This document shows positions 4,726 to 31,241 of a DNA stretch of 39,342 nucleotides, piece after piece. A program made the translations under genes and the position numbers. Each line of letters starts with the position of its first letter. Within the stretch, counting starts at the first letter, position 1. The stretch comes from a virus. The stretch is from UHGV virus genome UHGV-0147691. One strand, 5' to 3'. The notes under the pieces are model-generated. The model was not told the origin of the DNA. It made no database searches and saw only the letters and a list, made by a program, of their open reading frames with translations.

Positions 4726-5373
4726 CTATTTTTTTCTTCTGTTCTTTTCTTTTGCGTCATAGAACATTCTTTGGAATGATAATAATAACTTATCTTTTGT
4801 TTCTTCTGATATAGAATCATCATCAAAAAACATTGCAGATTCTCCCATAAATTTTATATACTGTTTCCTTGAAATTCCTTTTAAGTCTTCAGGTATACTA
4901 AAACGGTTTTCAAGTTCTTCTATATCTTCTAAAGAAAATTTATTTTTTAAATATTTTATTTCATAGGCTTTTAAAATAAGTTCAACATCATAAGTTTTTA
5001 AAATTTCTCCATTTTTTATAACATCAACTTTATTTCCTCTTTTTATTTCCCCAAATGAACAAGCACTATTTTTTTCTAAAATGGAAGAGAGGTCTTTTAT
5101 TAATTTTTTTTCTTCCAATTTTTGAAGCTCTTTTGAGGAAAGAGGAGTATCACCTATAATTAATTCTTTTTTATCTTCCATTCCCATTATAAATTCTGGA
5201 GAAACTTGAAGAGCTTTAGCCAGAAGAGAAATTTTATCTCTTTTCATATTTTCAATAGCACCAGTTTCCCATTTTCTAACGGTACTTTTAGTTACTCCTA
5301 CCATGTTCCCAACTTCTTCAAGAGTAAGATTTAGTTCTAATCTTCTATTTTTTAATTTTTGACCATCTCCCAT
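4726..5373 (-). CDS. XRE-family HTH transcriptional repressor (CI-like)
   Basis: It has an N-terminal HTH, LTLEEVGNMVGVTKSTVRKWETG. It is divergent from a Cro-like gene across a promoter and operator region. Confidence 0.8.
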   Translation of the reverse strand: MGDGQKLKNRRLELNLTLEEVGNMVGVTKSTVRKWETGAIENMKRDKISLLAKALQVSPEFIMGMEDKKELIIGDTPLSSKELQKLEEKKLIKDLSSILEKNSACSFGEIKRGNKVDVIKNGEILKTYDVELILKAYEIKYLKNKFSLEDIEELENRFSIPEDLKGISRKQYIKFMGESAMFFDDDSISEETKDKLLLSFQRMFYDAKEKNRRKK

Positions 5374-5426
5374 AGTAAAACTCCTTTTAAATTTATTTAC
5401 TTTTATAATGTAATTATATTATAGAA

Positions 5427-5522
5427 GTATCTTTTTTGCAACTAATTTTTTTCAAAAAAGTGTCTTTTAGGAGTTGACAACTTTTAAAAAATAATATATA
5501 ATCAAAGTATCTTATAAGACAC
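5427..5522. promoter_or_regulatory. Operator region of GTATC half-site palindromes
   Basis: GTATCTTATAAGACAC (5507-5522) is a 16-bp near-palindrome. Further GT(A/G)TC half-sites lie at about 5427 and about 5460, overlapping the -35 element. Confidence 0.4.
5474..5502 (+). promoter_or_regulatory. PR-like consensus promoter TTGACA-17-TATAAT reading into cro
   Basis: It reads ttgaca, then a 17-nt spacer, then tataat, 45 nt upstream of the cro ATG. Confidence 0.5.
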
Positions 5523-5546
5523 AAGAAAAAAGAAAGGAGATTTCTA

Positions 5547-5747
5547 ATGAATAGTAATTTATTAAAAGAAGAATTAAAAAATAAAAATAAAACTATTGAA
5601 GACTTATATAAGCACTTAAATATTAGTAAGTCTGCTATGTTCAGAAAGTTAAAAGGGACATCTTATTTTAAAGCGATTGAAATCAAACAAATAACAGAGT
5701 TTCTTAAATTAAGTAATAAAAAAATGAATATGATTTTTTTTGATTAA
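5547..5747 (+). CDS. Cro-like HTH regulator
   Basis: It is a 66-aa protein with an HTH, IEDLYKHLNISKSAMFRKLKG, and is divergent from the repressor. Confidence 0.6.
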   Translation: MNSNLLKEELKNKNKTIEDLYKHLNISKSAMFRKLKGTSYFKAIEIKQITEFLKLSNKKMNMIFFD

Positions 5748-12464: not shown

Positions 12465-12556
12465 AAGGAGTGAGAGATGAAACTAAAAATTAAAAGACAA
12501 GGCTCTTTCTTAGCTGGAAAATTGAGCCTGTGGGAAAGGATAAAGAGGTTTTTCAG

Positions 12557-13270
12557 ATGAAAAATATCGTATCTTTCAGTGGTGGAAAGGATTCTACTGC
12601 TATGTTGTTGATGATGATTGAAAAAGGAATAAAAATCAATGAAATCATATTTTGTGACACTACTGTAGAATTTCCTGAGATGTATCAACACATTAAGAAA
12701 GTTGAGAAGTATATAAAAATACCTATAACAATCTTAAAACCTCAGAACACATATGAATACATGATGTTTGAATACGAGAAAAAGCGAGGTAAAAATAAAG
12801 GACAACACGGCTATGATTGGGCTGGTCCTAGAGCAAGATGGTGTACTCGTTATTTCAAGTAAGAGGTAATGAGAAAATATATAAAATCAAAATACAAAAA
12901 TGAGCAAGTAATAGAATTTGTAGGTATAGCAGCTGATGAAATAAAACGGCTAGAAAAAAATAAAAGCAAAAATAATTTAAGATATCCACTTGCTGAATGG
13001 GGAATAACAGAACAAGAAGCACTTCAATATTGCTACTCAAAAGGCTTTGATTGGAATGGGTTATATAAAAAATTCAATCGTGTAAGCTGTTGGTGTTGTC
13101 CTTTGCAGTCTTTGAAAGAACTTAGGGTATTATATAAAGATTTTCCTGAGCTTTGGAAAATCTTAAAAGAATGGGACAGCAAAACAAGACGAAAATTTAG
13201 GGCTGACTATTCTGTGAAAGAATTAGAAGAAAAATTTAAAAAAGAAAATATGAAAATTAAACTTTTTTAA
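12557..13270 (+). pseudogene. PAPS-reductase-family PP-loop ATPase gene split by one in-frame TAA at 12860-12862
   Basis: Track ORFs 12530-12862 and 12869-13270 are in the same frame and separated only by TAA-GAG-GTA. The N-terminal half carries SFSGGKDS and RWCTRYFK. The C-terminal half carries the CWCCP motif. An ATG at 12557 is preferred over the GTG at 12530. Confidence 0.5.
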
Positions 13271-13293
13271 GAAAGGATAAAGAGGTGATTTAA

Positions 13294-13503
13294 GTGAATG
13301 AAAATGAATTTAAATATAATGGTATTAAATTAAGAGCTATCCCCGTTGATGAATTAAAAGAACCTTGTGAAGGATGTTATTTTAATAATAATGACTGTGG
13401 ATATACTTTTCTTACCGATTTAAGACCTAGTTGTTTAGCAATAAAAAGAGTAGACGAAACAAATGTTATTTTTGTAGAGGTGGAAGATGAGAGCATGGAA
13501 TAA
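13294..13503 (+). CDS. Hypothetical Cys-containing 69-aa protein
   Basis: This is a track ORF. It is preceded by the 16-bp RBS repeat gaaaggataaagaggt. Confidence 0.35.
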   Translation: MNENEFKYNGIKLRAIPVDELKEPCEGCYFNNNDCGYTFLTDLRPSCLAIKRVDETNVIFVEVEDESME

Positions 13504-13693
13504 AAGAAAAAGACCAAAGCATTGGACAAAGCCTAAGTGGCACAAAAGAATATTCATTTTTAAAACATTCTATATTCTAAAAACTGCTTTTATGAAAGAA
13601 AAACTAAATATTCGTGGATTTGAAGTTGAAAATAAAGTTATAAATACTTGTTTTTTTAATAAAATAAGAGGTGGAATAAATGTGGAAATGTAA
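13487..13693 (+). CDS. Questionable very basic 68-aa ORF
   Basis: The frame is open, but it overlaps neighbouring genes and has no clear RBS. Confidence 0.15.
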   Translation: MRAWNKRKRPKHWTKPKWHKRIFIFKTFYILKTAFMKEKLNIRGFEVENKVINTCFFNKIRGGINVEM

Positions 13694-13859
13694 ATGCTGT
13701 GGAGAATATATGATTGGTTTTGCTGAAACTAAATTTTATGGTGTAGATAAAAATGGAAATGTGCTAAAAGATGAGTTAGATAGCGAAAGTTCATTTATAT
13801 GTTTAGATTGTGATTGTGAGAGTAATAATATAAATGATATAGCTACTTGGGAGGAATAA
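13680..13859 (+). CDS. 59-aa zinc-ribbon protein (two CxxC pairs)
   Basis: MWKCKCCGEY...FICLDCDCE has two CxxC pairs. It has a GAGGTGG RBS and its stop abuts the next ATG. Confidence 0.4.
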   Translation: MWKCKCCGEYMIGFAETKFYGVDKNGNVLKDELDSESSFICLDCDCESNNINDIATWEE

Positions 13860-14135
13860 ATGATTTTTGATGTTGTTAAGATTGTAACTGACAGCTTTGC
13901 TGAAATTAGAGATATTTTAAATCTTCAGGAAGAGGAAGCATCTTTAATTTTAGATGTAGATACTGATAATATCTTAATTGGTATTCAGTACGATGATGTA
14001 GAAATAACTGGAAAGATGAGATTACAGATTGTGAAGAAAATAAATTCTTTGAAAAAATATTTGAATTGTAACCACATTTTAATAGATTCAAGAAGTGTTA
14101 TTTTTCAGGGTACCACAGTAAGGAGTTCAAAATGA
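13860..14135 (+). CDS. Hypothetical protein
   Basis: This is a track ORF. Confidence 0.35.
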   Translation: MIFDVVKIVTDSFAEIRDILNLQEEEASLILDVDTDNILIGIQYDDVEITGKMRLQIVKKINSLKKYLNCNHILIDSRSVIFQGTTVRSSK

Positions 14136-14587
14136 GAGAAATTAAATTTAGAGGATATGATTTATATAGCGAATCTTGGGTATATGGAGCATACATTAAA
14201 CATATTGATTCAACTCCATGTTTATTTCCTAGCAAAGAAGAAGAGGAAAAATGGTATAAAGAGCATACAAAACATCTTATTGCATTTGATGGCTTTTCAG
14301 ATTGGTGGATGCCAAGAGGAATTGATGTGTGTACTTCCATTGTTCCTGATTCAATAGGGCAATCTACAGGATTATTTGATGTAAATAAAAAAGAAATTTT
14401 TGAGGGAGATATTGTTAAATATAGATTATACAACAAATCTGTTCTTTATGAAGTTAAATACAATAATTCAACTTTAAGCTGGCAGTTATCTAATAAACTC
14501 GAGAATGAAAATATTTCATTTGCATTTAAGTCAAGACTTGAAGTAATAGGAAATGTTTATGAAAATCCAGAAATAGAGGTGAATTAA
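14132..14587 (+). CDS. YopX-family protein
   Basis: The N-terminus MREIKFRGYD is typical of the YopX family (MxxIKFRaWd). Confidence 0.5.
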   Translation: MREIKFRGYDLYSESWVYGAYIKHIDSTPCLFPSKEEEEKWYKEHTKHLIAFDGFSDWWMPRGIDVCTSIVPDSIGQSTGLFDVNKKEIFEGDIVKYRLYNKSVLYEVKYNNSTLSWQLSNKLENENISFAFKSRLEVIGNVYENPEIEVN

Positions 14588-14752
14588 ATGAGAAATGCAA
14601 TGACAGAAAATCCTGTTTGTCCTTACTGTGGACATATATATAACGGACCATTGTTTTTTGACAATAAAAAAATAAAATGTAGTAATTGTGGAAAAATTTA
14701 TGAATATGATTTTTATATCTTTTATTCAACTTGGAAAGAAGGTGAAAAATAA
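14588..14752 (+). CDS. 54-aa zinc-ribbon protein (CPYCG...CSNCG)
   Basis: The frame is open between track ORFs and has two CxxC pairs. Confidence 0.35.
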   Translation: MRNAMTENPVCPYCGHIYNGPLFFDNKKIKCSNCGKIYEYDFYIFYSTWKEGEK

Positions 14753-14979
14753 TGGTTTATCAAGATAAAAGAGGTTGGATATTTTTCGTAAGAGCAGGGC
14801 TTGGTGAAAATAATTTTAAAGCTTTTTATACTAAAACAGCAGAAGATTATAAATCTGGAATAAGAAGTCATGGTGTAAAAAGTTTGGAATATAGAAAAAG
14901 TATTCAAGAAGCAGAAATGGATCTAAAAGAATATGCTGCAAAACATAAAATGAAAGTATATGAAGCAGAGTGGGAATAA
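14752..14979 (+). CDS. Hypothetical protein
   Basis: This is a track ORF. Confidence 0.35.
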   Translation: MVYQDKRGWIFFVRAGLGENNFKAFYTKTAEDYKSGIRSHGVKSLEYRKSIQEAEMDLKEYAAKHKMKVYEAEWE

Positions 14980-15013
14980 AAAATTTTACTTGAAGAAAGA
15001 ATAGGAGATACAC

Positions 15014-15169
15014 ATGACATATTACTGCAGAAAATGTGGAAAATTCATTGGAAAGAAAACATCAAAAACAGAAAGATATGTTGGAAAAAACATTGTGAAT
15101 GACCTTATAAAAAATGAAATTACTATAAGATGTGAATGTGGAACAATAAATATAATTAAAAGAAAATAG
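15014..15169 (+). CDS. 51-aa zinc-ribbon protein (CRKCG...CECG)
   Basis: It has a GGAG RBS and two CxxC pairs. Confidence 0.35.
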   Translation: MTYYCRKCGKFIGKKTSKTERYVGKNIVNDLIKNEITIRCECGTINIIKRK

Positions 15170-15200
15170 AACTAATAAAAAGATATAGTGCATATTTATA

Positions 15201-15229
15201 TTGAAAAATAAGTAAAGTCAAGGTATAAT
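15201..15229 (+). promoter_or_regulatory. Putative late-operon promoter TTGAAA-17-TATAAT
   Basis: It reads ttgaaa, then a 17-nt spacer, then tataat. A leader of about 110 nt with a small hairpin and T-run follows, before a strand-consistent gene block that runs to the end of the genome. Confidence 0.4.
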
Positions 15230-15344
15230 ATAATTGACAATTAAATGATTAAAGGACCTAGCAACAGAGGACCTAAATATTCCGTGATGAGCGGTTTATT
15301 TTGGTTTCTCTGTTTTTTTTATTTCCTGAAAAAGAGGTGAAAAA

Positions 15345-15455
15345 ATGGAAAAAATAATAGAAGGACTTCAAGGTGGATTTTATATTATAGCTTTTGGCTG
15401 CATAATTTTCACAGCATACACTTTATATAACGATCATAAAAAAAATAAAAAATAG
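15345..15455 (+). CDS. 36-aa small membrane peptide MEKIIEGLQGGFYIIAFGCIIFTAYTLYNDHKKNKK
   Basis: It has an AAGAGGTG RBS and one TM helix. Confidence 0.35.
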   Translation: MEKIIEGLQGGFYIIAFGCIIFTAYTLYNDHKKNKK

Positions 15456-15564
15456 GAGAGAAAAATGATTAATTTTTTTAATATATATGGAAATTATGGG
15501 CATGGGACTCGTGCTTATGGGATACCTTTATCTTATTACTATAGAACTAAAAAGAGGTAATAAA

Positions 15565-16092
15565 ATGAATTTAAAATTGACTGAAATAGAAACAAATAAA
15601 ATTATTCCTTATGAAAATAATTCTAAGGAACATCCAGAATGGCAAATATCACAAATAATGAAATCAATAGAAGCTTTTGGGTTTAATGATCCAATAGCTA
15701 TAAATGAAAATTTTATGATAATAGAGGGACATGGAAGATATTTAGCAGCAAAAGAATTAAATATGGAAAAAATCCCATGTATTATTTTAACGGGAATGTC
15801 AGATGAACAAATAAGAGCTTATACAATAGCCCATAATAAGCTGTGTATGAATACTGATTTTGATTTGGAAAAATTAAGATATGAAATGAATGCTTTAACA
15901 GTTGAAAATTTTGATATAACTCTTACTGGGTTTTCTCAAATAGAATTAGAGGATATAAATAAAACTTTAGATTGTGGAAAATTAAGATTATCAGAAACTT
16001 ATGAGGATAAAAATAAAGAGATAGATCTTGAAGATGAAGAATTTAAGGATTTTTCTCATTGCTGTCCTCGGTGTGGATTTGAATTTAATTAG
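15565..16092 (+). CDS. ParB-like nuclease-domain protein with a C-terminal CPRCG zinc ribbon
   Basis: IIEGHGRYLAAKEL matches the ParB N-terminal motif. The start was moved to M27 of the track ORF, where there is an AAGAGG RBS. Confidence 0.55.
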   Translation: MNLKLTEIETNKIIPYENNSKEHPEWQISQIMKSIEAFGFNDPIAINENFMIIEGHGRYLAAKELNMEKIPCIILTGMSDEQIRAYTIAHNKLCMNTDFDLEKLRYEMNALTVENFDITLTGFSQIELEDINKTLDCGKLRLSETYEDKNKEIDLEDEEFKDFSHCCPRCGFEFN

Positions 16093-16100
16093 GAGGATAA

Positions 16101-17126
16101 ATGAACAGCTATATTTGGAGATTAGAAGACTTAAAAAATATTGAAAAGAATGGCCTGAAAGTTTTTAGCTGTTTCAGTTGTGGTGGTGGCTCAACAATGG
16201 GATATAAACTGGCAGGCTGTGAAGTAATAGGAAATGTGGAAATAGATCCTAAAATTATTAAAATTTATAAACTAAATCACAATCCAAAATATCCTTTTTT
16301 GATGGGAGTGCAAGAGTTCAAAAATATACCAAATGAGGAATTGCCTAAAGAATTATTTAACTTAGATATATTAGATGGTAGTCCTCCATGTAGTACTTTT
16401 TCTATTGCAGGTAGCAGAGAAAAAGCATGGGGAAAAAAGAAGAAATTCAGAGAAGGACAGACAGAACAGGTACTATCAGACCTATTCTTTGATTTCTTAG
16501 ATGTAGTTGAAAAATTAAATCCTAAGGTAGTAATAGCTGAAAATGTAAAAGGCATGATAATGGGAAATGCTAAAGGCTATGTAAAAGCTATTGCTAAAAG
16601 ATTCAATGAACTTGGATATGATGTCCAGCTATTTTTATTTAATGCTGCCAGTATGGGAGTTCCTCAAGCAAGAGAAAGAACATTTTTTATTGCAAGGAAT
16701 AGAAAATACAATTTCCCAAAATTAAATATATCTTTTAATGAAAAACCTATTTCTTATGGAGAAGTTGAAGAAACATTAAGTGAGAAATATGGAGATAGAA
16801 TTTCTGAGAGAGTATTTGATATTTGGAAAAAAACATATCCAGGTCATAGTTTATCAGGTGCTCATCCACGAGGAAGCTATTTTAATTATTATAGAATTTC
16901 AAAAGATAAACCTGTTAATACAATTACAGCAGCAGAGGGAGGATCTCTTATTCATTATGAACAACCTTGTAAATTATCAGGAGAGGCTCTTATAAAGTGT
17001 AGTTCTTTTCCAATAGACTATAATTTTGCTGATGAATCAATAAAATATATTGTCGGAATGTCTGTTCCGCCTTTAATGATGAAAAGGGTGGTACAAGAAG
17101 TAATAAGACAATGTTTTAATAAGTAG
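16101..17126 (+). CDS. DNA (cytosine-5)-methyltransferase
   Basis: It has motif I (FSCFSCGGGSTMG), motif IV (GSPPCSTFSIAG, the PC motif) and the ENV motif (VIAENVKGM). Confidence 0.85.
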   Translation: MNSYIWRLEDLKNIEKNGLKVFSCFSCGGGSTMGYKLAGCEVIGNVEIDPKIIKIYKLNHNPKYPFLMGVQEFKNIPNEELPKELFNLDILDGSPPCSTFSIAGSREKAWGKKKKFREGQTEQVLSDLFFDFLDVVEKLNPKVVIAENVKGMIMGNAKGYVKAIAKRFNELGYDVQLFLFNAASMGVPQARERTFFIARNRKYNFPKLNISFNEKPISYGEVEETLSEKYGDRISERVFDIWKKTYPGHSLSGAHPRGSYFNYYRISKDKPVNTITAAEGGSLIHYEQPCKLSGEALIKCSSFPIDYNFADESIKYIVGMSVPPLMMKRVVQEVIRQCFNK

Positions 17127-19131: not shown

Positions 19132-21237
19132 ATGGCAAAAGAGAATAAAGAAAAAAAAGAAATTATTACATCAGCAGTTGTTAAATTATTTAGTGAGAGT
19201 TCTCCTGAAACTAATAAGATAACAGATGAAACAATAGATAGATTACTTTTAGATATTGATATTAGTTCAGCACTCAATAAGATTGAGAGAGAAACAGCGG
19301 GAAGAATTTTAAAAGTTATTGCTGAAAATCCTGAAAATGATGAACAAGCAAAGGAAATCAATCAAAGATTTTCAAATATAAAATTTAATAGAATTATAAA
19401 TCATTTAATAACAGCAAGATATTATGGATATAGTTGTTTTGAGATAGTCTATAATGAAGATTTTACAATTAATTCATTAGTACCTATTCCATATAAGTAT
19501 ATTACATATAAAACATCTAATAAAAAGTGGGTATTAAGAATAGGAACAAATGAAACTGATTTAAACAGAGATAAGTTCTTATTATGTATTTATAGATGGA
19601 ATCCTGCACAACCAACAGGAAAAACAATATTTGAAAGTTGTCAACAAGCATTTTTAGATAAAGAAATGTTCTCAAGACAATTAAGAGGACTAGCAGAAAA
19701 ATATGGAGATACCATTATAGTATTCCCATACAATGAAAATTTAAGTGATGAAGAAGCTGCAGAAATTGGTAAAACAGTTTTAAATGCTAAAGGTAAAAAT
19801 GCAATAGGTGTTCCAGTTAGTAGAAATCATTCTCTTAAAGAAAGTTTTGAATTTATAAGATTATCAGATTTAGATCCTGAAATATATACAAAATTATATG
19901 CAGCAGAGAAAGAAAAACTTATTCAAAATCTTTTAGGCTCTACATTAACACTTGAATCAAGTAGTAAAAATGGAAAGGGTACTCAAGCCCTAGGAGAGAT
20001 ACATAAAGAGGGATTTGAACAAGTAGTACAAGAAGTATGTAATTTTTGTTCAGATAGCTTATATCAATTAATACAGCTTGACAGTGAATATTTTGGATAT
20101 AATCCTGGTTTATTTACATGGAAACTTGAAAAAGTAGTTACAGAGGAAGAACAAGCTGAAATTGATAAAAAACAGCAAGAGTTTATTGGAATAAAACTAG
20201 ATAATATCAATAAACTTTCAACAGCAGGTTATGAGTTAGAAAATAAATATCTTGGAGAATATCTTGGAATAGATTATACAAAGATATTAAAAAAAACTAA
20301 TTCAGTAATAAATATAAAAGAGTTTGCTGAAGAAGAAGATAAGAAATTATTTAATACTATTGAGGGAGCAAATACATTTAATGCTTATGTTCTTTCAAAA
20401 TTAAATAAATTTACTGAAAATATCTCACAACAAATTATTGAACAAGTAATGAATATAAAAGAAGGAGATGATTTTGTACTCAACTTAGATTATTCAATGC
20501 TTGAAGATGATTTAATAATTTCAAGAATAAAAGGTTTCAGCAATTCAAGATATACAACTTTTAATGAAGTTATAGAAGAATTTGACCCATTCAAAATGAA
20601 GTTTGAGGAAGCTATAAAATCATTCTTAGATAAAATGCCTGTATTGTATGACACGATAGAGGAAGTAACAGAAGATGTGAGAGCAAACTTTATATGGCTT
20701 AAAAAATCAAATGATTTAGAAATTACTACAAGATTATTTGATAGCATGAAGAAATCTCTTGAAAATGGGACTACATTTAAGCAATGGATAAAAGATTGTG
20801 AACAAGCTATCAATAAAGCTGGATTAGGTAAACAAGGTTATTACTTAGAAAATGTTTATAGAACTAATATGATGACACAATACAGTATAGGAAACTATAA
20901 ACAGCAAATGGAAGTTGTAGAAGATTATCCATATTGGGAGTATTCAGCAATAGAAGATAATAGAACTTCTAATATATGCAGACAGCTTGACGGAGTTGTA
21001 AAAAGATATGATGATTCGTTTTGGAGTGCATACTATCCACCTAATCATTTTCATTGTCGTTCAACTGTAATTTCTCGTAATAAAGAAGAACTTAAGAAAT
21101 ACAATCTTAAAATCTCTAAAGATGTTTTTGAAGTAGATATAAAAGGATTTAAAGGTAATCCTGCTGAAAGCTACTGGAATAATATAAAAATGACGGCAGG
21201 AGAAAAAGGCAGACAAGGAACTTTTAAATGGGAATAA
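19132..21237 (+). CDS. Portal protein fused to a Mu-F or SPP1-gp7-like head-morphogenesis domain
   Basis: It is the 701-aa gene after terminase. The C-terminal region YPPNHFHCRSTV matches the Mu F-like motif. Confidence 0.5.
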   Translation: MAKENKEKKEIITSAVVKLFSESSPETNKITDETIDRLLLDIDISSALNKIERETAGRILKVIAENPENDEQAKEINQRFSNIKFNRIINHLITARYYGYSCFEIVYNEDFTINSLVPIPYKYITYKTSNKKWVLRIGTNETDLNRDKFLLCIYRWNPAQPTGKTIFESCQQAFLDKEMFSRQLRGLAEKYGDTIIVFPYNENLSDEEAAEIGKTVLNAKGKNAIGVPVSRNHSLKESFEFIRLSDLDPEIYTKLYAAEKEKLIQNLLGSTLTLESSSKNGKGTQALGEIHKEGFEQVVQEVCNFCSDSLYQLIQLDSEYFGYNPGLFTWKLEKVVTEEEQAEIDKKQQEFIGIKLDNINKLSTAGYELENKYLGEYLGIDYTKILKKTNSVINIKEFAEEEDKKLFNTIEGANTFNAYVLSKLNKFTENISQQIIEQVMNIKEGDDFVLNLDYSMLEDDLIISRIKGFSNSRYTTFNEVIEEFDPFKMKFEEAIKSFLDKMPVLYDTIEEVTEDVRANFIWLKKSNDLEITTRLFDSMKKSLENGTTFKQWIKDCEQAINKAGLGKQGYYLENVYRTNMMTQYSIGNYKQQMEVVEDYPYWEYSAIEDNRTSNICRQLDGVVKRYDDSFWSAYYPPNHFHCRSTVISRNKEELKKYNLKISKDVFEVDIKGFKGNPAESYWNNIKMTAGEKGRQGTFKWE

Positions 21238-26440: not shown

Positions 26441-26890
26441 ATGGCAGATTTTATATTTAAAGAAACTGACGTTGTTTCAGGAAGTTTTGGTAAATGCTAT
26501 ATTGACGGCAGACATTGGGCAGAAGTAAGCGAATTTGAAGCTAAATTAAAACTTGACAGTAAAGATGTTCTTCTAGCAGGAGGACAAAAAGGGAAGAAAA
26601 ATACATCTTCATCAATAGAAATTAAGATTAAACTTCAAAAAGTTTTCTCTACTGAAACAGAATTACTAAAATCAGTTATTTCAGGAATGTTAAATCCTAT
26701 GACAACTATAAATGTACAACTTGATGACCCCGAAGCAAGAGGGGCAGAAGCATTAGCTTTCAATGATTGCATATTTACAGGAGATATTGATTTAGGAAGT
26801 TTTAAAAACGGAGAACTTACAGAAAGAGAATTTACTCTATCATGTGTACCAGATAGAATTGAAATTCTTGAAAGTATAGCAGATGTATAA
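26441..26890 (+). CDS. Tail tube protein (XkdM-like)
   Basis: Its size, position and beta-rich composition fit a tail tube protein. Confidence 0.5.
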   Translation: MADFIFKETDVVSGSFGKCYIDGRHWAEVSEFEAKLKLDSKDVLLAGGQKGKKNTSSSIEIKIKLQKVFSTETELLKSVISGMLNPMTTINVQLDDPEARGAEALAFNDCIFTGDIDLGSFKNGELTEREFTLSCVPDRIEILESIADV

Positions 26891-26906: not shown

Positions 26907-26927
26907 TTGGACATTGGAAATTGAATA
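26907..26927. repeat. 21-bp direct repeat TTGGACATTGGAAATTGAATA, left copy
   Basis: It is identical to 27752-27772, and together they flank the moron cassette. Confidence 0.55.
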
Positions 26928-26965
26928 TTATTCGAGGTAAATAAAAAGATTATTTATAAAAGTAC

Positions 26966-26994
26966 TTGACTTTTAAAAGAAGATATTTTATAAT
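26966..26994 (+). promoter_or_regulatory. Near-consensus promoter TTGACT-17-TATAAT inside the tail operon
   Basis: It reads ttgact, then a 17-nt spacer, then tataat, followed by GAAGGAGGAGG and an ATG at 27024. Confidence 0.5.
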
Positions 26995-27023
26995 ATACTT
27001 AAGTTGAAGGAGGAGGTAAAATT

Positions 27024-27137
27024 ATGTTGTTAGCAATAATTATTGCCCTGATTACTTCTTTACCAAGTTATTCAAAAGAAATTCGTGAGTGGTATATACT
27101 ACTTAAGAAAGACAAAAAGAATAATAAAAGAAAGTAG
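27024..27137 (+). CDS. 37-aa small membrane peptide MLLAIIIALITSLPSYSKEIREWYILLKKDKKNNKRK
   Basis: It has a strong RBS and a hydrophobic N-terminus, and it shares the KEI(L/R)EW motif with the peptide at 1113. Confidence 0.4.
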   Translation: MLLAIIIALITSLPSYSKEIREWYILLKKDKKNNKRK

Positions 27138-27196
27138 TCAAACAGGAGGAGACGGCATTCTCCTCTTTCAGCTAAACAATAATAGGAGTTGATTAT

Positions 27197-27340
27197 ATGA
27201 AAACAGTTTTAATCGTTGCTGTTATATTTTTAATACCTGTTTTAAGTAATATTATAAGAAATATTTACAGATATAAAAAAAATCTTCCTTTTGAAAATAC
27301 TTTCATAGGAAGAACTTTAGAAAATCTTATAAAAAAATAA
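27197..27340 (+). CDS. 47-aa small membrane peptide MKTVLIVAVIFLIPVLSNIIRNIYRYKK...
   Basis: It has a GGAG RBS and one TM helix, and is followed by a terminator. Confidence 0.4.
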   Translation: MKTVLIVAVIFLIPVLSNIIRNIYRYKKNLPFENTFIGRTLENLIKK

Positions 27341-27365
27341 GAAGGTCGGCATACCTTCTTATCTT
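27340..27365 (+). terminator. Terminator hairpin AGAAGGTcggcatACCTTCT
   Basis: It has a 7-bp stem and a weak T tract. Confidence 0.4.
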
Positions 27366-27535
27366 CGTTGAAGTTTAAATTATGTTGCTATATTTAGATT
27401 ATAATAACTTTTTACAAAAAAGTCAATGATAATAAAAAGAACCTTGAAAAATAAATTTCAAAGTTCTTATTAATGTTTAAGTTCTTAGGTACTTGAATTA
27501 TAGTCTATTTTTAAAAAAAAGTCAAGGAGAACACT

Positions 27536-27712
27536 ATGGCAGGAAAAGTTGGAAGACCAGCAGGTATTACAAAAGATAAAAGAATGTTTGGTTATAAATA
27601 CAATGAAAAAGAGTACAATGAGATGAAAAAAGCTCTTGAAAAATATAAAGAGAAACATCATTGTACAACATCAAAGGCACTATATATCCTGATTACAGAA
27701 AGTAATAAATAA
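27536..27712 (+). CDS. RHH (Arc/CopG-like) DNA-binding protein, 58 aa
   Basis: MAGKVGRPAGITKDKRMFGYKYNEKEYNEMKKALEKY matches the RHH strand-helix-helix pattern. The N-terminus resembles that of the 776-976 gene (MAG..G). Confidence 0.4.
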   Translation: MAGKVGRPAGITKDKRMFGYKYNEKEYNEMKKALEKYKEKHHCTTSKALYILITESNK

Positions 27713-27717
27713 TTTTT

Positions 27718-27751
27718 TAAATCCTCGGATAATATTCTGAGGATTTTTTTA
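27718..27751 (+). terminator. Terminator AAATCCTC..GAGGATTT followed by TTTTTT
   Basis: It has a stem of up to 8 bp followed by a 7-T run. Confidence 0.55.
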
Positions 27752-27772
27752 TTGGACATTGGAAATTGAATA
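27752..27772. repeat. 21-bp direct repeat TTGGACATTGGAAATTGAATA, right copy
   Basis: It is identical to 26907-26927. Confidence 0.55.
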
Positions 27773-27864
27773 GGTGTGATTTTAAATATATTTATATCTT
27801 GATTTTTATATAGTTGTGTACTATCATTAAATTAATACTACAATTTAAACAACGGGGTGGTTTT

Positions 27865-28485
27865 ATGAAAACTGAATTTACTGAAGCTGAAGTTAAAAAA
27901 GCTAAAAGAAGAGGGATAGGGTGTTTAACTGTAATAGCAATTATAGTAATTTTTATAATTACTGCTTATTTAAATTATGAGCCTAGTCCATTAGAAAAAA
28001 TATTTAAAGATAATGATTTAGGACTTGTTGAAAATGTTGTAGAAGACACTTGGAAAACAAATGGTAAGATTTTAAATTTTGAAACTAGAAAAATAAAATA
28101 CAAAGCATACATTGAAGAAGATGGAACACCGTATCAAATTTTTGTAGGAAAAGGAAAAAGTTTTCCAATTTATGATACAAGTAATAACGATACAGTTATA
28201 GATGAAAATGAAAAATTAATAATATATAGAATGATTAGTTTTATGGATAAATCAAGTAAAACATACTCAGGTCTTATTCCTGAAATAAAAGCTGATATAG
28301 AACGTCAACTTAATTTTCCAGATACATTTTCATGTAAAAATATTCAAATGTTCGATATGGGAAAATATTATATATTAAATATAACTTTTACTGCAAAAAA
28401 TGCTTTTGGGATGAAATTAACAAATGTAGCAAAATATAAAATGGACTTTGAAACAAATACATATTCTTTAATAGAAATTCTTTAA
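27865..28485 (+). CDS. N-terminally membrane-anchored moron protein of about 206 aa, possibly a surface-exposed exclusion factor
   Basis: It has the TM segment GIGCLTVIAIIVIFIITAYL, an extracytoplasmic domain and its own terminator. The start was set at M18 of the track ORF. Confidence 0.45.
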   Translation: MKTEFTEAEVKKAKRRGIGCLTVIAIIVIFIITAYLNYEPSPLEKIFKDNDLGLVENVVEDTWKTNGKILNFETRKIKYKAYIEEDGTPYQIFVGKGKSFPIYDTSNNDTVIDENEKLIIYRMISFMDKSSKTYSGLIPEIKADIERQLNFPDTFSCKNIQMFDMGKYYILNITFTAKNAFGMKLTNVAKYKMDFETNTYSLIEIL

Positions 28486-28506
28486 TAAATTATAAATATA
28501 TCTATA

Positions 28507-28540
28507 ATCACACCTATTTAATTAAAGGTGTGATTTTTTT
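28507..28540 (+). terminator. Terminator ATCACACCTatttaattaaAGGTGTGAT followed by TTTTTTT
   Basis: It has a perfect 9-bp stem and a T-run. It overlaps the tool's GTG start at 28530, which supports 28563 as the true start. Confidence 0.6.
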
Positions 28541-28562
28541 ATACAAAAATTTAGGAGGAAAC

Positions 28563-28940
28563 ATGGATATTAAAAAACTTATAGAACAAGCAGAAGAATT
28601 AAAAAATAAAAAGGAAACAAGAACAAAAATAACTCTTGAAATTCCAAGATTTAAAGAGCTTGGATTTGAAGATTATACAGTCGTTCTACAAAAGCCTACT
28701 ACAACTATTATTTTATCAGCTCAAGAACATGAAGATAAATATTACCAAATATGTGAGTGCATGATTACACCTGATTTATCAAATAAAGATGTTCAAAAAG
28801 CCTTTAAAGTAAATAATAAAACTTCACTTTTGAGAAAAGTATTTACAGAGGAAGAAATAGAAGACATGATAATGCACTTAGGAAGATTAACAATGACACA
28901 GACTAAAGCTAGATTGGTTGCTGATATAAAAAACTTATAA
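28563..28940 (+). CDS. Tail assembly chaperone (XkdN-like), short product
   Basis: It has an AGGAGG RBS and lies immediately upstream of the tape-measure gene. It ends in the slippery heptamer A_AAA_AAC. Confidence 0.5.
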   Translation: MDIKKLIEQAEELKNKKETRTKITLEIPRFKELGFEDYTVVLQKPTTTIILSAQEHEDKYYQICECMITPDLSNKDVQKAFKVNNKTSLLRKVFTEEEIEDMIMHLGRLTMTQTKARLVADIKNL

Positions 28941-29098
28941 AAACTAATGATAATCTATACAGGATTTATCATTGGAGCTTAAAAGGACAACCTATATTTA
29001 ATAAGCCTTTATCTGAAATTGATAGCATAGAGCAAACGTTTTTAGATGCTTGTTTTATGCTTGAAATTGAAGAAAAGAAAGTTAATAAAAGGGGGTGA
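28563..29098 (+). CDS. Predicted -1 frameshift extension product of the tail chaperone (G/GT-like)
   Basis: A_AAA_AAC lies at 28928-28934. The -1 frame is open for about 55 codons (KKLIKTNDNLYRIYHWSLKGQPIFNKPLSEIDSIEQTFLDACFMLEIEEKKVNKRG) and ends at a TGA at 29096-29098, just before the tape-measure ATG. Confidence 0.45.
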
Positions 29099-29102
29099 AT
29101 AA

Positions 29103-31241
29103 ATGGCGGAACGTGAATACATAGAATTTGTAACAAAAGTTCAAGGTAAAGAAAATTTAGAGCAACTTGGTGGCATATTTGAAGAACTTATACAAGAAGC
29201 AAAAAAAGCTGGAATAAATGTTGATAAATTCGCAGAAAGATTAAAAGAACTAGCAGGAAAAACAAAAAATAATTTACCTGTATATGATATGTTTATATCA
29301 AAATTAAAAACTATTGCAGGTATAACAGCAGTTGGAATGGGAATGAAAAAATCAATAGATTTATTTGCTTCCTTTGATGATGTGGCGAGAAGAGTACAAG
29401 CAACAACAGGGGCAACAGCAGAAACAATGGAATTATTAAGATACCAAGCAAAAAAATTAGGAGCTGAAACTTCATGGAGTGCGAGCGAATCAGCAGAAGC
29501 CCAATTTGAATTTGCTAAAGCAGGATTTACAAGTAATGAAATTTTAGCAGCGACTTCTGGAATATTAGATATAGCAACAGCTTCTCAATTAGGTTTAGCA
29601 GAAGCAACAAGTATTACAGCAGGAGCTTTAAGAATGTTTAAATTAGATGCTTCTAAGAGTTCAGTTGTAGGTGATATGCTAGCAAAAACAGCGAGTGCAA
29701 CAACAACAGATGTTAGAGGACTAGGAGAGTCTTTAAAATATGCAGGAGTTGACTCAAGAAATTTTGGAATGAATTTACAACAAACTTTGGGAATACTTGG
29801 AAAACTTGGTAATGAAATGTTAGCAGGTGGAAGTGCAGGAACAGGCTTACAATCTGTATTTTCAGCACTACAAAATAAAGCAAAAGCTAAAATATTAGTT
29901 GAAGCAGGAGTAAATATATCTCAAGACGGAAAATATAGAAACTTCTTAGATATTGTAAAAGATATTAAAAAAGCTACTTCAAACATGGAACAAGTGCAAG
30001 CAGGAACTTTAATTAATAATGTATTTGGAGAGCAAGGCTCACAAGTAATGAAAAGACTTTTACAAGTTCCAGAGGAAGAATTACAAAATCTTATTAAAGA
30101 GATAGAAAACTCAAAAGGCTTCGCAAAAGATATGGCAGATTTACTTAATGGCGGAGTAGGTGGAGCTTTTAGAAATATGGGGTCAGCAGTAGAGGGACTA
30201 GGAATTTCTTTAGGTGAATTCTTAGAACCGTCAGTTACTCTTTTAATAAATTCTATGACAACTATTATTGGAGCAGGAACAGGTTTTATAGATTGGTTAA
30301 ATTCTGGTAGTTATATGGCAGATATAATGAGTTCTGCAATAATAGGTCTTACAGCAGGGTATGGAACTTATAAAGCATATTTAATAGCGACAACTTTATG
30401 GGAAAAAGCTCATAAAACAGAAATTTATAAAAAAATAGCCGCCTTTAAATTATCATCGGTTGTAACAGCAATAGCAACAGGGTCTCATAAAATTTATTCA
30501 TTTGTACTTGGCCTTTTAACAGGAAAAGTGACAATGACAACAATATCAATATGGGGATTGAATACAGCAATGGCGGTTATGACAGCGCCTATTGGTCTTG
30601 TAGTTGCAGGAATAGTTGGAGCAATAGCAGGGTTTACTTTTCTATATCAAAAATCTGAAAGATTTAGAAATGCTATATCACCACTTATAAATGCTTTAAA
30701 AAATCTATGGAATTGGGTTAAAAAATTTGATTTTGTAGGTAATGTAATTGATAATGTCAAAGCAGGATTTGGAAAAATAAAAGATTTTTTTGTAGCAGGA
30801 ACTCAAGGAAAAACTAAAAAACAACAGCAAGAAGAACTTAATAAAATAATAGCTGAAGTTGAAGCAGGACAAGGAACATCACAAGAAACAGCAGTAGGTA
30901 CAGGAGTTAATACAGATTATTTATTTACAGGTGGAGCAAGTGGAAGTGGTGGAGTAAGACATAACGGATACTACTTAAAAGGCTCTAAGAATATAACTAA
31001 CACATCACAAGGTAATATTTATACAGAAAATTCTAATTCTTCTGAGAACTCTACACCACAAGAGACAACAGAAAATCTTATAGTAAATACCTTACAAGTA
31101 ATTGCAACTACTCTAAAAGAAGTATATTCTGAAATGAAAACTAAAAAAAGCGGTAATGGTAATACATATATAGTAAATGATGTAGAAACAACATTAGATA
31201 AAATTGTTACAGATTTACAAATAGCATTAGGTAATATGTAG
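29103..31241 (+). CDS. Tail tape measure protein
   Basis: It is a 712-aa protein with a helical, Ala/Gly-rich core, internal TM-like segments and a Gly-rich C-terminus. Its position fits XkdO. Confidence 0.8.
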   Translation: MAEREYIEFVTKVQGKENLEQLGGIFEELIQEAKKAGINVDKFAERLKELAGKTKNNLPVYDMFISKLKTIAGITAVGMGMKKSIDLFASFDDVARRVQATTGATAETMELLRYQAKKLGAETSWSASESAEAQFEFAKAGFTSNEILAATSGILDIATASQLGLAEATSITAGALRMFKLDASKSSVVGDMLAKTASATTTDVRGLGESLKYAGVDSRNFGMNLQQTLGILGKLGNEMLAGGSAGTGLQSVFSALQNKAKAKILVEAGVNISQDGKYRNFLDIVKDIKKATSNMEQVQAGTLINNVFGEQGSQVMKRLLQVPEEELQNLIKEIENSKGFAKDMADLLNGGVGGAFRNMGSAVEGLGISLGEFLEPSVTLLINSMTTIIGAGTGFIDWLNSGSYMADIMSSAIIGLTAGYGTYKAYLIATTLWEKAHKTEIYKKIAAFKLSSVVTAIATGSHKIYSFVLGLLTGKVTMTTISIWGLNTAMAVMTAPIGLVVAGIVGAIAGFTFLYQKSERFRNAISPLINALKNLWNWVKKFDFVGNVIDNVKAGFGKIKDFFVAGTQGKTKKQQQEELNKIIAEVEAGQGTSQETAVGTGVNTDYLFTGGASGSGGVRHNGYYLKGSKNITNTSQGNIYTENSNSSENSTPQETTENLIVNTLQVIATTLKEVYSEMKTKKSGNGNTYIVNDVETTLDKIVTDLQIALGNM

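Follow-up and report, generated by a model that had tools for sequence, protein, structure and literature searches.

How can a unit that carries its own promoter and terminator sit inside the essential late operon of a phage? We addressed this question in UHGV virus genome UHGV-0147691, a stretch of 39,342 nt that was analyzed over its full length (termed the window) and that represents a prophage of a Fusobacterium-type host, with its nearest genomic relative in Fusobacterium perfoetens ATCC 29250, a strain in which the first of the cassettes described below (cassette 1) is present. Such units are usually explained by a phage-wide antiterminator; no Q-like antiterminator and no late sigma factor or activator was recognized in the window. 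We found that, between the tail tube gene (DUF2001; 26441-26890) and the gene for an XkdN-like chaperone (28563-28940), the window carries a tandem of two accessory-gene cassettes (morons) that are mobile independently of each other and that are each headed by the same 21-nt sequence (21-mer). The sheath and tape-measure genes are also among the neighboring late genes. The best explanation of the locus as a whole, which we consider fairly probable, is that both cassettes are headed by a boxA-type antitermination box and have terminators that depend on where transcription started, and that cassette 1 is a toxin-antitoxin (TA) system of type I.

The 21-mer TTGGACATTGGAAATTGAATA consists of three heptads (TTGGACA TTGGAAA TTGAATA) and occurs exactly twice in the window, on the plus strand, at 26907-26927 and 27752-27772, as had been reported in an earlier note drawn up from the letters alone. 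No further matches with up to three mismatches were present in the window, and two matches were obtained in 0 of 100 shuffles. That note had read the two copies as the recombination boundaries of a single 845-bp insert, in which a ribbon-helix-helix (RHH) protein would be the partner, antitoxin or regulator, of two small peptides. An exact repeat does bracket this unit, and the left boundary of the mobile cassette is the 21-mer in every context. However, relatives that carry the cassette have the left copy only. In L001 and L002 (close relatives) and in L011 (metagenomic), cassette 1 is found at 90 to 95% identity behind a single 21-mer, its terminator runs straight into the ribosome-binding site of the chaperone gene, and the sequence at 27750-28533 of the window is missing. 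The location between tube and chaperone had been given correctly, but a complete second cassette, with an open reading frame (ORF) of 206 codons (ORF206; 27865-28485, plus strand), had been overlooked between the second 21-mer and the chaperone gene.

The window shows a mosaic junction at 27750-31210: upstream of it, the sequence is 90 to 95% identical to L001 and L002, the chaperone and tape-measure region is about 65 to 75% identical, and high identity returns at 31211. Because the window is only about 67% identical to these relatives from the chaperone gene up to and including the tape-measure gene, its right-hand part derives from another lineage, which was expected to have the order tube, 21-mer, ORF206, chaperone. 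This arrangement was found, and ORF206 homologs were always in that site. In L149, L150, and L153, the same 16-nt spacer lies between the tube stop codon and the exact 21-mer, and the 21-mer continues into ggtgtgatttt, as the second copy does in the window, so that the same 21-mer heads a solitary ORF206 cassette; throughout L149 to L160, ORF206 stands without cassette 1 behind the same or a variant head. The tube-chaperone junction is thus occupied by cassette 1 alone, by cassette 2 alone, or, in the window, by both in tandem. The earlier note had suggested looking for an empty site with one 21-mer, and the empty junctions that we found carry none: neither the sheath-tube junction of the window (15 nt) nor the tube-chaperone junction of L004 (13 nt) contains a copy. 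Because single-cassette loci have one copy and empty sites have none, every 21-mer marks the 5' end of the cassette to which it belongs, and the second copy is the 5' end of the ORF206 cassette rather than the far boundary of an 845-bp insert. The shared 21-mer could still have provided the homology for the tandem joining, as the junction reads T run, A, 21-mer. Given that the right copy belongs to the ORF206 cassette and is present when that cassette stands alone, and that the motif heads unrelated cargos in unrelated phages (see below), we regard a single insert as improbable.

The idea of a mobile module inserted into a late operon, with a consensus promoter and a terminator of its own, held up well. 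Homologs of cassette 1 follow the tube gene in the window, L001, L002, and L011 and lie between sheath and tube in 13 contigs of a related myovirus group (e.g., L004), in which the cassette encodes peptides of 26 and 29 aa and a 60-aa RHH-like protein; the similarity of this group to the window starts 4 nt before the 21-mer and stops at 27749. In L022 and L023, the cassette precedes the tape-measure gene of a siphovirus-type (HK97-gp10-type) tail module, and its head matches at 20 of 21 positions. In L019, a cassette 1-type unit is found among RelB/YafQ and ParE modules, and the same head and the same terminator family enclose the RelB/YafQ cargo. The window cassettes have the composition by which morons are recognized, with a promoter, one or more genes, and a terminator lying between genes that are adjacent in related phages. 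The locus region had no match in a collection of isolated phages. The L019 contig is of interest in its own right, as it stacks three addiction-type modules (1972-2670 and 5190-5731): RelB/YafQ in a boxA-headed shell, the peptide/RHH type I unit, and a DUF6290/ParE module with its own promoter right after the RHH stop codon. The most divergent peptide/RHH cassette lies at 3735-5201 of L020 and encodes a 66-aa RHH protein with an N-terminal extension; it adjoins a divergent resolvase gene, precedes a holin gene, and has no recognizable boxA-like head.

What, then, is the 21-mer? By sequence, it is a near-copy of the boxA/boxC antitermination box of rRNA (rrn) operons from the host phylum. For comparison, we retrieved the rrn operons of four Firmicutes and four Fusobacteria. 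In the four Firmicutes, the only motif-like sites were the leader and spacer boxA positions, and with a matrix built from eight of these Firmicutes rrn boxA sites, the two 21-mers ranked second and third of ~78,600 positions in the window. The window's best match to this matrix is ATGTTCTTTCAAAATTAAATA at 20387-20407 (plus strand, within ORF 19132-21237), which scored 17.2, against 15.5 for the best of 30 shuffles; the site may be one more antitermination box, lying within a late structural gene, or a chance match. The leaders and spacers of Fusobacteria rrn operons read AAGGACATTAGCAACAGAATA, TTGGACATTGGAAACTATATA, and similar. The boxA of the Cetobacterium 16S-23S spacer, TTGGACATTGGAAACTATATA, matches the 21-mer at 18 of 21 positions, with the first 14 nt identical, and the spacer boxes of Ilyobacter (ATGGACATT...) and Fusobacterium (CTGAACATT...) match at 17 and 16 of 21, respectively; the L019 head shares 19 consecutive nucleotides with the Cetobacterium leader boxA. 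With a matrix from Fusobacteria rrn operons only, both 21-mers scored 25.0, the top two values in the window, close to the 26 to 30 of genuine sites; the next site in the window scored 9.0 and the best of 40 shuffles 19.4. The 21-mer is conserved at 21 of 21 positions where its flanks are just 68 to 77% identical. Beyond the match to the boxA of the host lineage, it lies on the sense strand upstream of both cassette terminators, and it enters a leader-trailer pairing described below, as expected of a boxA.

A degenerate search retrieved the motif from many phage contigs that are unrelated to one another, and in each case it stands first in a transcription unit: after a terminator in one class of 45 contigs, after phage tRNA genes in another class, and before the RelB/YafQ pair in L019. 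The heads of classes i and ii had no match in the collection of isolated phages. The three 7-bp direct repeats of the 21-mer could instead be the operator of the RHH protein, comparable to the heptad arrays of omega repressors, with the protein coregulating both cassette promoters. The heptad periodicity, the position 26 to 38 nt upstream of the -35 elements, and the identical copies before both promoters are in line with this proposal, and GRP-type RHH genes follow the motif in 30/45 contigs of one large phage class. In that class, however, the motif is invariant, yet at least five RHH alleles and different promoter-proximal palindromes follow it. The motif also heads cassettes that have no RHH gene (ORF206 and the class ii and class iii shells), and it matches the boxA of rRNA operons, where no such protein acts. 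We therefore give very little credence to an RHH operator and retain a boxA-type box as the likely identity of the 21-mer.

Several further observations concern the motif in these contigs. In L035 (3248-4980) and 44 similar viral contigs (GC content, ~0.40), the order is terminator, TTGAACATTGACAACTGAATA, promoter, one or two RHH genes (MSPRTGRPK...; at least five alleles, whose promoter-proximal palindromes all differ), a 224-aa gene, and terminator; the unit has the appearance of an exchangeable cassette, regulatory or of immunity type, built into the same shell. In Firmicutes-type phages (L104 4236-4800; L036, L041, L138, L055, and others), the motif lies 1 to 3 nt after phage-encoded tRNA genes, and an extended -10 element (TGgTATAAT) follows its last heptad, TTGAAT, at a distance of 17 nt, so that the box overlaps the -35. 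Two other identities of the 21-mer were considered and rejected. It is not an attachment (att) site, as the contigs in which it follows tRNA 3' ends contain internal phage tRNA arrays; nor is it a promoter, for although the last heptad of class ii lies 17 nt from an extended -10, the window has no -10 at the right distance. A GC-rich exact match in L014 was also set aside, since its context is unrelated and a database of that size should yield about one such match by chance.

We then analyzed the relation between each head and the terminator of its cassette. The leader strand of cassette 1 (X1; 26923-26957, plus strand) is complementary to 27705-27737, which comprises the 5' arm, the loop, and the upstream flank of terminator T1. 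This trailer strand opens the tail of the cassette (27705-27751, plus strand), in which the T1 hairpin (27719-27746), already listed in the earlier note as a second strong terminator, is followed by a T run. In cassette 2, the leader strand (X2; 27764-27796, plus strand) is complementary at 30 of 33 positions to 28491-28523, thus forming a 33-nt inverted repeat, and the trailer overlaps the 5' arm of terminator T2 in a tail at 28491-28542 (plus strand; AATCACACCT...AGGTGTGATT plus T7). The leader/trailer local alignments scored 41 for cassette 1 and 51 for cassette 2, values reached by 0 of 2,000 shuffles in each case. The pairing starts in the last heptad of the 21-mer; on the terminator side, it is not confined to the stem but takes in the loop and as many as 16 nt upstream. 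The leader-trailer helices of Fusobacteria rrn operons begin at the same register inside the boxA region.

The complementarity is conserved and covaries. The CGAGG/CCTCG pairing of the window corresponds to CTGAGG/CCTCAG in L019, a compensatory change. Across ~120 motif sites, the best reverse-complement matches of the recurrent classes scored 25 to 47, against a control median of 19, and were positioned 260 to 1,700 nt downstream, directly before a T run. Within one homologous class, the heads fit their own terminators better than those of their siblings (0 of 5,000 permutations), and this class shows triple compensatory changes that include terminator-loop positions. The mismatches on the sense strand were 47 G·U versus 11 A·C. 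A terminator-tail pattern scan of viral contigs gave no matches.

In predicted folds, X1 pairs with the 5' arm of T1 in read-through RNA of cassette 1, and the X2 helix encloses ORF206 in read-through RNA of cassette 2, in both the minimum free energy (MFE) and the centroid structures; the T2 hairpin forms in head-less RNA only. When head-containing RNA was folded for 15 cassettes, the MFE structure paired the 5' arm of the terminator with the head in 13 of them, and for most of these 13, the head-less RNA folded the terminator.

Could the resemblance to boxA be a nonfunctional relic of DNA captured from rRNA or tRNA operons, and the complementarity a by-product of terminator palindromy or duplication? 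The class ii motif does lie directly after phage tRNA genes, as in rrn spacers, and since the hairpins are palindromic, a copied 3' arm would look complementary to the 5' arm. A relic does not account for a 21-mer that is fully conserved amid diverged flanks, nor would copying explain a complementarity that reaches past the stem into the loop and upstream of it; direct-orientation controls remained at background (median, 19), and the loop positions covary with the head. We find a relic hardly credible. A second possibility is that the element acts at the DNA level, as the terminal repeats of a cassette akin to miniature inverted-repeat transposable elements, integron cassettes, or invertons, with the 21-mer as recombinase site. 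The cassettes have clearly moved from one position and one phage type to another, the cargo is flanked by inverted repeats, and a resolvase gene adjoins the L020 copy; yet this resolvase-adjacent copy is the one that lacks a head. Moreover, the inverted repeat is internal to the mobile unit, which starts ~15 nt earlier and ends after the 3' arm and T run of the terminator. There is no target-site duplication, most contexts have no associated recombinase, and the copies, at least 30, all have the same orientation relative to the flanking genes. As the G·U bias of the sense strand would be meaningless for DNA and the 21-mer matches the rrn boxA, a DNA-level element appears decidedly improbable.

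A third possibility, compatible with the boxA-headed terminator that we favor, is that the head-terminator helix is an RNase III processing stalk that excises the cassette RNA from late polycistronic transcripts. Cleavage would separate, and perhaps stabilize, the flanking late mRNAs and inactivate the toxin mRNA. The helices are 15 to 33 bp long, enclose the entire cargo, and have the same geometry as rRNA leader-trailer helices, which are RNase III substrates. Many of them (class ii, ~15 to 17 bp) are short for RNase III, however, and the trailer is always placed exactly on the 5' arm and loop of the terminator, followed by the T run, a placement that processing does not need. Such a stalk is in our judgment unlikely, if less so than an element acting on DNA.

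We propose that the shell works as follows. Its order is a 21-mer boxA head, a leader strand starting in the last heptad, a sigma-70 promoter, the cargo, and a terminator complementary to the leader strand. Since the head lies upstream of the cassette promoter, it would be present only in read-through late transcripts. Transcripts from the cassette promoter would have no head, the terminator hairpin would fold, and transcription would stop; the downstream late genes would thus stay silent in the lysogen, in which the cassettes are presumed to be expressed. In late transcripts, the boxA would probably load Nus factors, which would confer resistance to Rho and keep the leader strand near the polymerase, and the leader strand would capture the 5' arm of the terminator so that late transcription reads through. 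In its general form, this proposal states that widespread portable cassettes of Fusobacteria and Firmicutes gut phages mimic the leader of rRNA operons, with boxA recruiting the antitermination machinery and the terminator becoming invisible to upstream transcripts; we advance it tentatively, with slightly less than even confidence.

The cargo of cassette 1 resembles the par/Fst type I TA systems in its architecture, and toxin and RNA antitoxin functions are predicted from this likeness. The features that had been listed here from the sequence are all present: a near-consensus promoter (P1; TTGACT-17-TATAAT, 26966-26994, plus strand, 11/12 to consensus), which is kept in six lineages and would drive the toxin mRNA; a GGAGGAGG ribosome-binding site; and ORFs of 37 and 47 aa, here named pepA (27024-27137, plus strand) and pepB (27197-27340, plus strand). 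PepA, the candidate type I toxin, is a membrane peptide with a hydrophobic helix, Trp23, and a Lys-rich tail; pepB, the second small ORF on the pepA mRNA, also encodes a membrane peptide. Judged by the ratio of nonsynonymous to synonymous polymorphism (pN/pS), which is 0.07 to 0.25 at a pS of ~0.5, pepA is under strong purifying selection; the ratio for pepB is 0.25 to 0.38. Among 1.84 billion representatives, just three clusters are related to PepA. The peptides had no match in Pfam or NCBIfam at permissive thresholds and none in PHROGs. Of the Fst/Ldr signature, PepA has the transmembrane helix, the Trp, and the Lys-rich tail and lacks the PxxxG motif. From its sequence, cassette 1 appears par-like in architecture and does not demonstrably belong to the Fst/Ldr superfamily. 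The earlier statement that the layout matches no named family thus stands for the peptides and falls for the architecture.

Each peptide ORF is followed by a hairpin. Hairpin 1 (GGAGGAGA-CGGCAT-TCTCCTC; 27145-27165, plus strand) follows pepA, and in the MFE fold of RNA from the cassette's own promoter, a single-sequence prediction, the Shine-Dalgarno sequence of pepA, GAAGGAGGAGG, pairs with the 3' side of hairpin 1 and its flank. The hairpin after pepB (27337-27362) had been described as the terminator of the 47-aa gene; it exists, but it makes a good terminator on the minus strand only, where it has a T7 tract, and we consider it a shared bidirectional terminator. Because its T tract on the plus strand is weak, it is uncertain whether the toxin mRNA ends there. 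The loops of the two hairpins are an identical 6 nt within each genome and covary between genomes (CGGCAT/CGGCAT in the window, TGGCAC/TGGCAC in L002, CAGCAC/CAGCAC in L022), which suggests that one antisense RNA loop may kiss both.

Two near-consensus promoters on the minus strand, absent from the earlier note, face P1. P-as2 (TTGACT-17-TATAAT; 27426->27398, 11/12 to consensus) is predicted to direct an antitoxin small RNA (sRNA) of ~60 nt (27330-27391, minus strand), the 3' half of which is the hairpin after pepB (-15.6 kcal/mol) followed by U7. The 26 nt at the 5' end of this sRNA (27391->27366) pair with the translation-initiation region of pepA (27002-27033), with the Shine-Dalgarno looped out; the predicted duplex has an energy of -20.7 kcal/mol, and 0 of 200 shuffles were as good. 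Pairing of sRNA and start site was also predicted in L002, L004, L019, L020, and L022, at -18 to -24.5 kcal/mol (0 to 1 of 200 shuffles), with targets that differ in sequence. P-as1 (TTGACT-17-TATAAT; 27525->27497, minus strand, 11/12 to consensus) abuts the ribosome-binding site of the RHH gene and has a homolog in all lineages. It would give a second antisense transcript of ~60 nt (27490->27428, minus strand) with its own terminator (27468->27437), for which we found no significant target, its duplexes being not above those of shuffles. A segment of ~99 bp (27427-27525) is present in the window and L001 and absent in L002 and L022; it contains a duplicate of the antisense promoter as well as a separate minus-strand terminator. 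Six lineages share the forward promoter, a pair of peptide ORFs with a hairpin after each, and an antisense promoter abutting the RHH ribosome-binding site. The convergent promoters, the shared bidirectional terminator, and the direct repeats aimed at the toxin start are those of a par-type locus. The TA-like layout that had been noticed earlier is thereby borne out, but the predicted antitoxin is an antisense RNA and not the RHH protein: the convergent antisense promoters and the covarying duplex of sRNA and start site point to an RNA antitoxin and argue further against a single insert with an RHH partner. An Rfam search returned no known sRNA or antitoxin family, and we found no description of type I systems in Fusobacteria in the literature searched.

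The third gene of cassette 1 encodes, as noted before, a 58-aa protein starting MAGKVGRP (27536-27712, plus strand), with a GRP arm, a short beta strand, and two helices. It had no sequence match in Pfam, NCBIfam, or the PDB, and its nine homolog clusters are likewise without a Pfam match. The AlphaFold2 (AF2) model has a beta-alpha-alpha topology with a predicted local distance difference test (pLDDT) score of 76, and a Foldseek search of the model gave weak matches to CopG (E=4) and PutA-RHH (E=7). When aligned by hhalign with those cassette RHH proteins that match Pfam RHH_1, the protein was in register (P=8.6e-4, probability of 23%). The assignment as RHH-like is accordingly weak. Because the plus-strand T tract after pepB is poor, the gene is probably reached by leak-through of the plus side of the shared terminator.

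Cassette 2 carries a single cargo gene, ORF206, behind a candidate promoter (P2; TTGATT-17-TATCAT, 27799-27827, plus strand) that matches the consensus at 9/12 positions and is conserved in L149 to L153. ORF206 is absent from L001 and L002, and its ten homolog clusters all occupy the same tube-chaperone site. Its matches in Pfam, PHROGs, and NCBIfam were weak or absent, and a pattern scan retrieved no relative among viral contigs. ORF206 encodes a membrane-anchored surface protein, the extracytoplasmic domain of which is modeled with confidence as two helix/beta-sheet repeats (AF2 pLDDT, 85) that weakly resemble BLIP-like/DUF2874 proteins. Within the family (homologs P0010 to P0019), an invariant G-C-L directly precedes the transmembrane helix; the Cys thus comes before the hydrophobic segment and not after it, unlike in a lipobox. 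P0012 has an N-terminal extension of ~120 aa.

Several points weigh against the explanation that we favor. All functional claims, that is, Nus binding, read-through, peptide toxicity, and antitoxin action, come from computation. At least 3 positions separate the 21-mer from each of the rrn sites sampled, which come from bacteria other than the host F. perfoetens. The antitermination complexes of rrn operons are best known to act against Rho-dependent and not intrinsic termination, so that the helix, and not boxA, would have to defeat the hairpin; and a local hairpin normally has the kinetic advantage over a partner 0.3 to 1.7 kb away. Two of the 15 folded cassettes (the L004 group and L133) keep the terminator in the MFE fold despite the head. 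The G·U asymmetry (47 versus 11) and the class counts are not phylogenetically independent. L020 has TA cargo without a recognizable head, and the shell is therefore not obligatory. As to cassette 1, the peptides match no Fst, Pfam, or NCBIfam model and are without the PXXXG motif, and the RHH assignment is weak.

Elsewhere in the window, accessory genes before the terminase (12530-17126) include a PAPS-reductase-like fragment, a YopX protein, a ParB-N domain protein, and a Dcm-type cytosine methylase.

Morons are carriers of defense, toxin, and virulence genes of temperate phages, and the locus suggests an alternative to a phage-wide antiterminator, in which the read-through device travels with each cassette and the terminator is conditional on where transcription starts. 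If this holds true, morons encoding TA systems, exclusion proteins, or regulators could insert anywhere in an operon without polarity, and the known uses of boxA (rRNA, lambda nut, CRISPR arrays, suhB) would extend to phage accessory cassettes. The shell would also provide a sequence signature for locating morons and their boundaries in uncultivated gut phages and a compact insulator part for synthetic biology, and cassette 1 would represent a previously undescribed type I TA family in Fusobacteria. No publication that connects boxA with morons or with long-range anti-terminators was found; the components are known, and their combination appears to be new.

Among known systems, cassette 1 is best compared with the par-like loci, which are defined by promoters that converge, a terminator that works in both directions, and direct repeats sequestering the initiation site (Weaver 2020, PMC7472228). 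Like par of pAD1 (Fst/RNA II), it has convergent promoters, a shared bidirectional terminator, and a direct repeat of the toxin start region; its Shine-Dalgarno sequence may be paired as well, as the single-sequence fold predicts, and PepA resembles Fst in its hydrophobic helix and charged tail with a Trp at the junction. Unlike par, it has peptides without detectable homology to Fst/Ldr and without PXXXG, two tandem peptide ORFs per mRNA that are each followed by a same-loop hairpin, a conserved downstream RHH-like gene, a host in the Fusobacteria and not the Firmicutes, and a boxA-headed shell.

As units, the cassettes resemble morons, a concept reportedly due to Juhala, Hendrix et al., who are said to have defined them as promoter, gene, and terminator between the late genes of lambdoid and other phages. 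Both are autonomous units between late genes that are adjacent in relatives, and their position varies by phage. Classical morons rely on a processive antiterminator of the phage, such as lambda Q, for late read-through, whereas each cassette of the window, in which no Q-like gene was recognized, appears to bring its own read-through device. In the sib retroregulation of int, an RNA structure leads to decay triggered by RNase III. As in the lambda nut sites, which combine boxA with boxB (background on nut sites and boxA, PMC2724277), and in sib, the cassettes would place a host-type boxA in nascent phage RNA, an RNA structure would form in transcripts of a single origin, and the fate of an RNA would depend on the promoter that made it; unlike in these systems, the signal is cassette borne and repeated per cassette, no partner of the boxB/N kind was identified for the cassettes, and the outcome proposed is bypass of a terminator through a long-range helix and not RNase III-triggered decay. 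A boxA has also been described upstream of CRISPR arrays, mainly in Proteobacteria, Bacteroidetes, and Cyanobacteria (Stringer et al. 2020, PMC7665894). There, too, boxA is recruited outside rRNA operons and protects a long, poorly translated transcript from premature termination; unlike in the cassettes, the termination is by Rho and concerns a noncoding array, with no long-range helix and no intrinsic terminator.

The closest parallel to the shell is the rRNA operon itself, in which a leader strand comes after boxA and base-pairs with a trailer on the far side of the gene (rrnTAC; Warner et al. 2023, PMC10250234). The 21-mer matches the spacer boxA of Fusobacteria rrn operons at 16 to 18 of 21 positions, with a score near that of genuine sites; the 5' strand of the helix starts in the last third of the box and pairs just past the enclosed gene; and in some phages, the motif follows tRNA genes, as it does in rrn spacers. 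In contrast to the rRNA leader, the phage shells enclose protein or toxin cassettes of 0.3 to 1.7 kb and not rRNA, and the trailer strand also serves as an intrinsic terminator's 5' arm. Finally, the phage promoter sits between the leader strand and the cargo, so that the helix would be limited to transcripts arriving from upstream.

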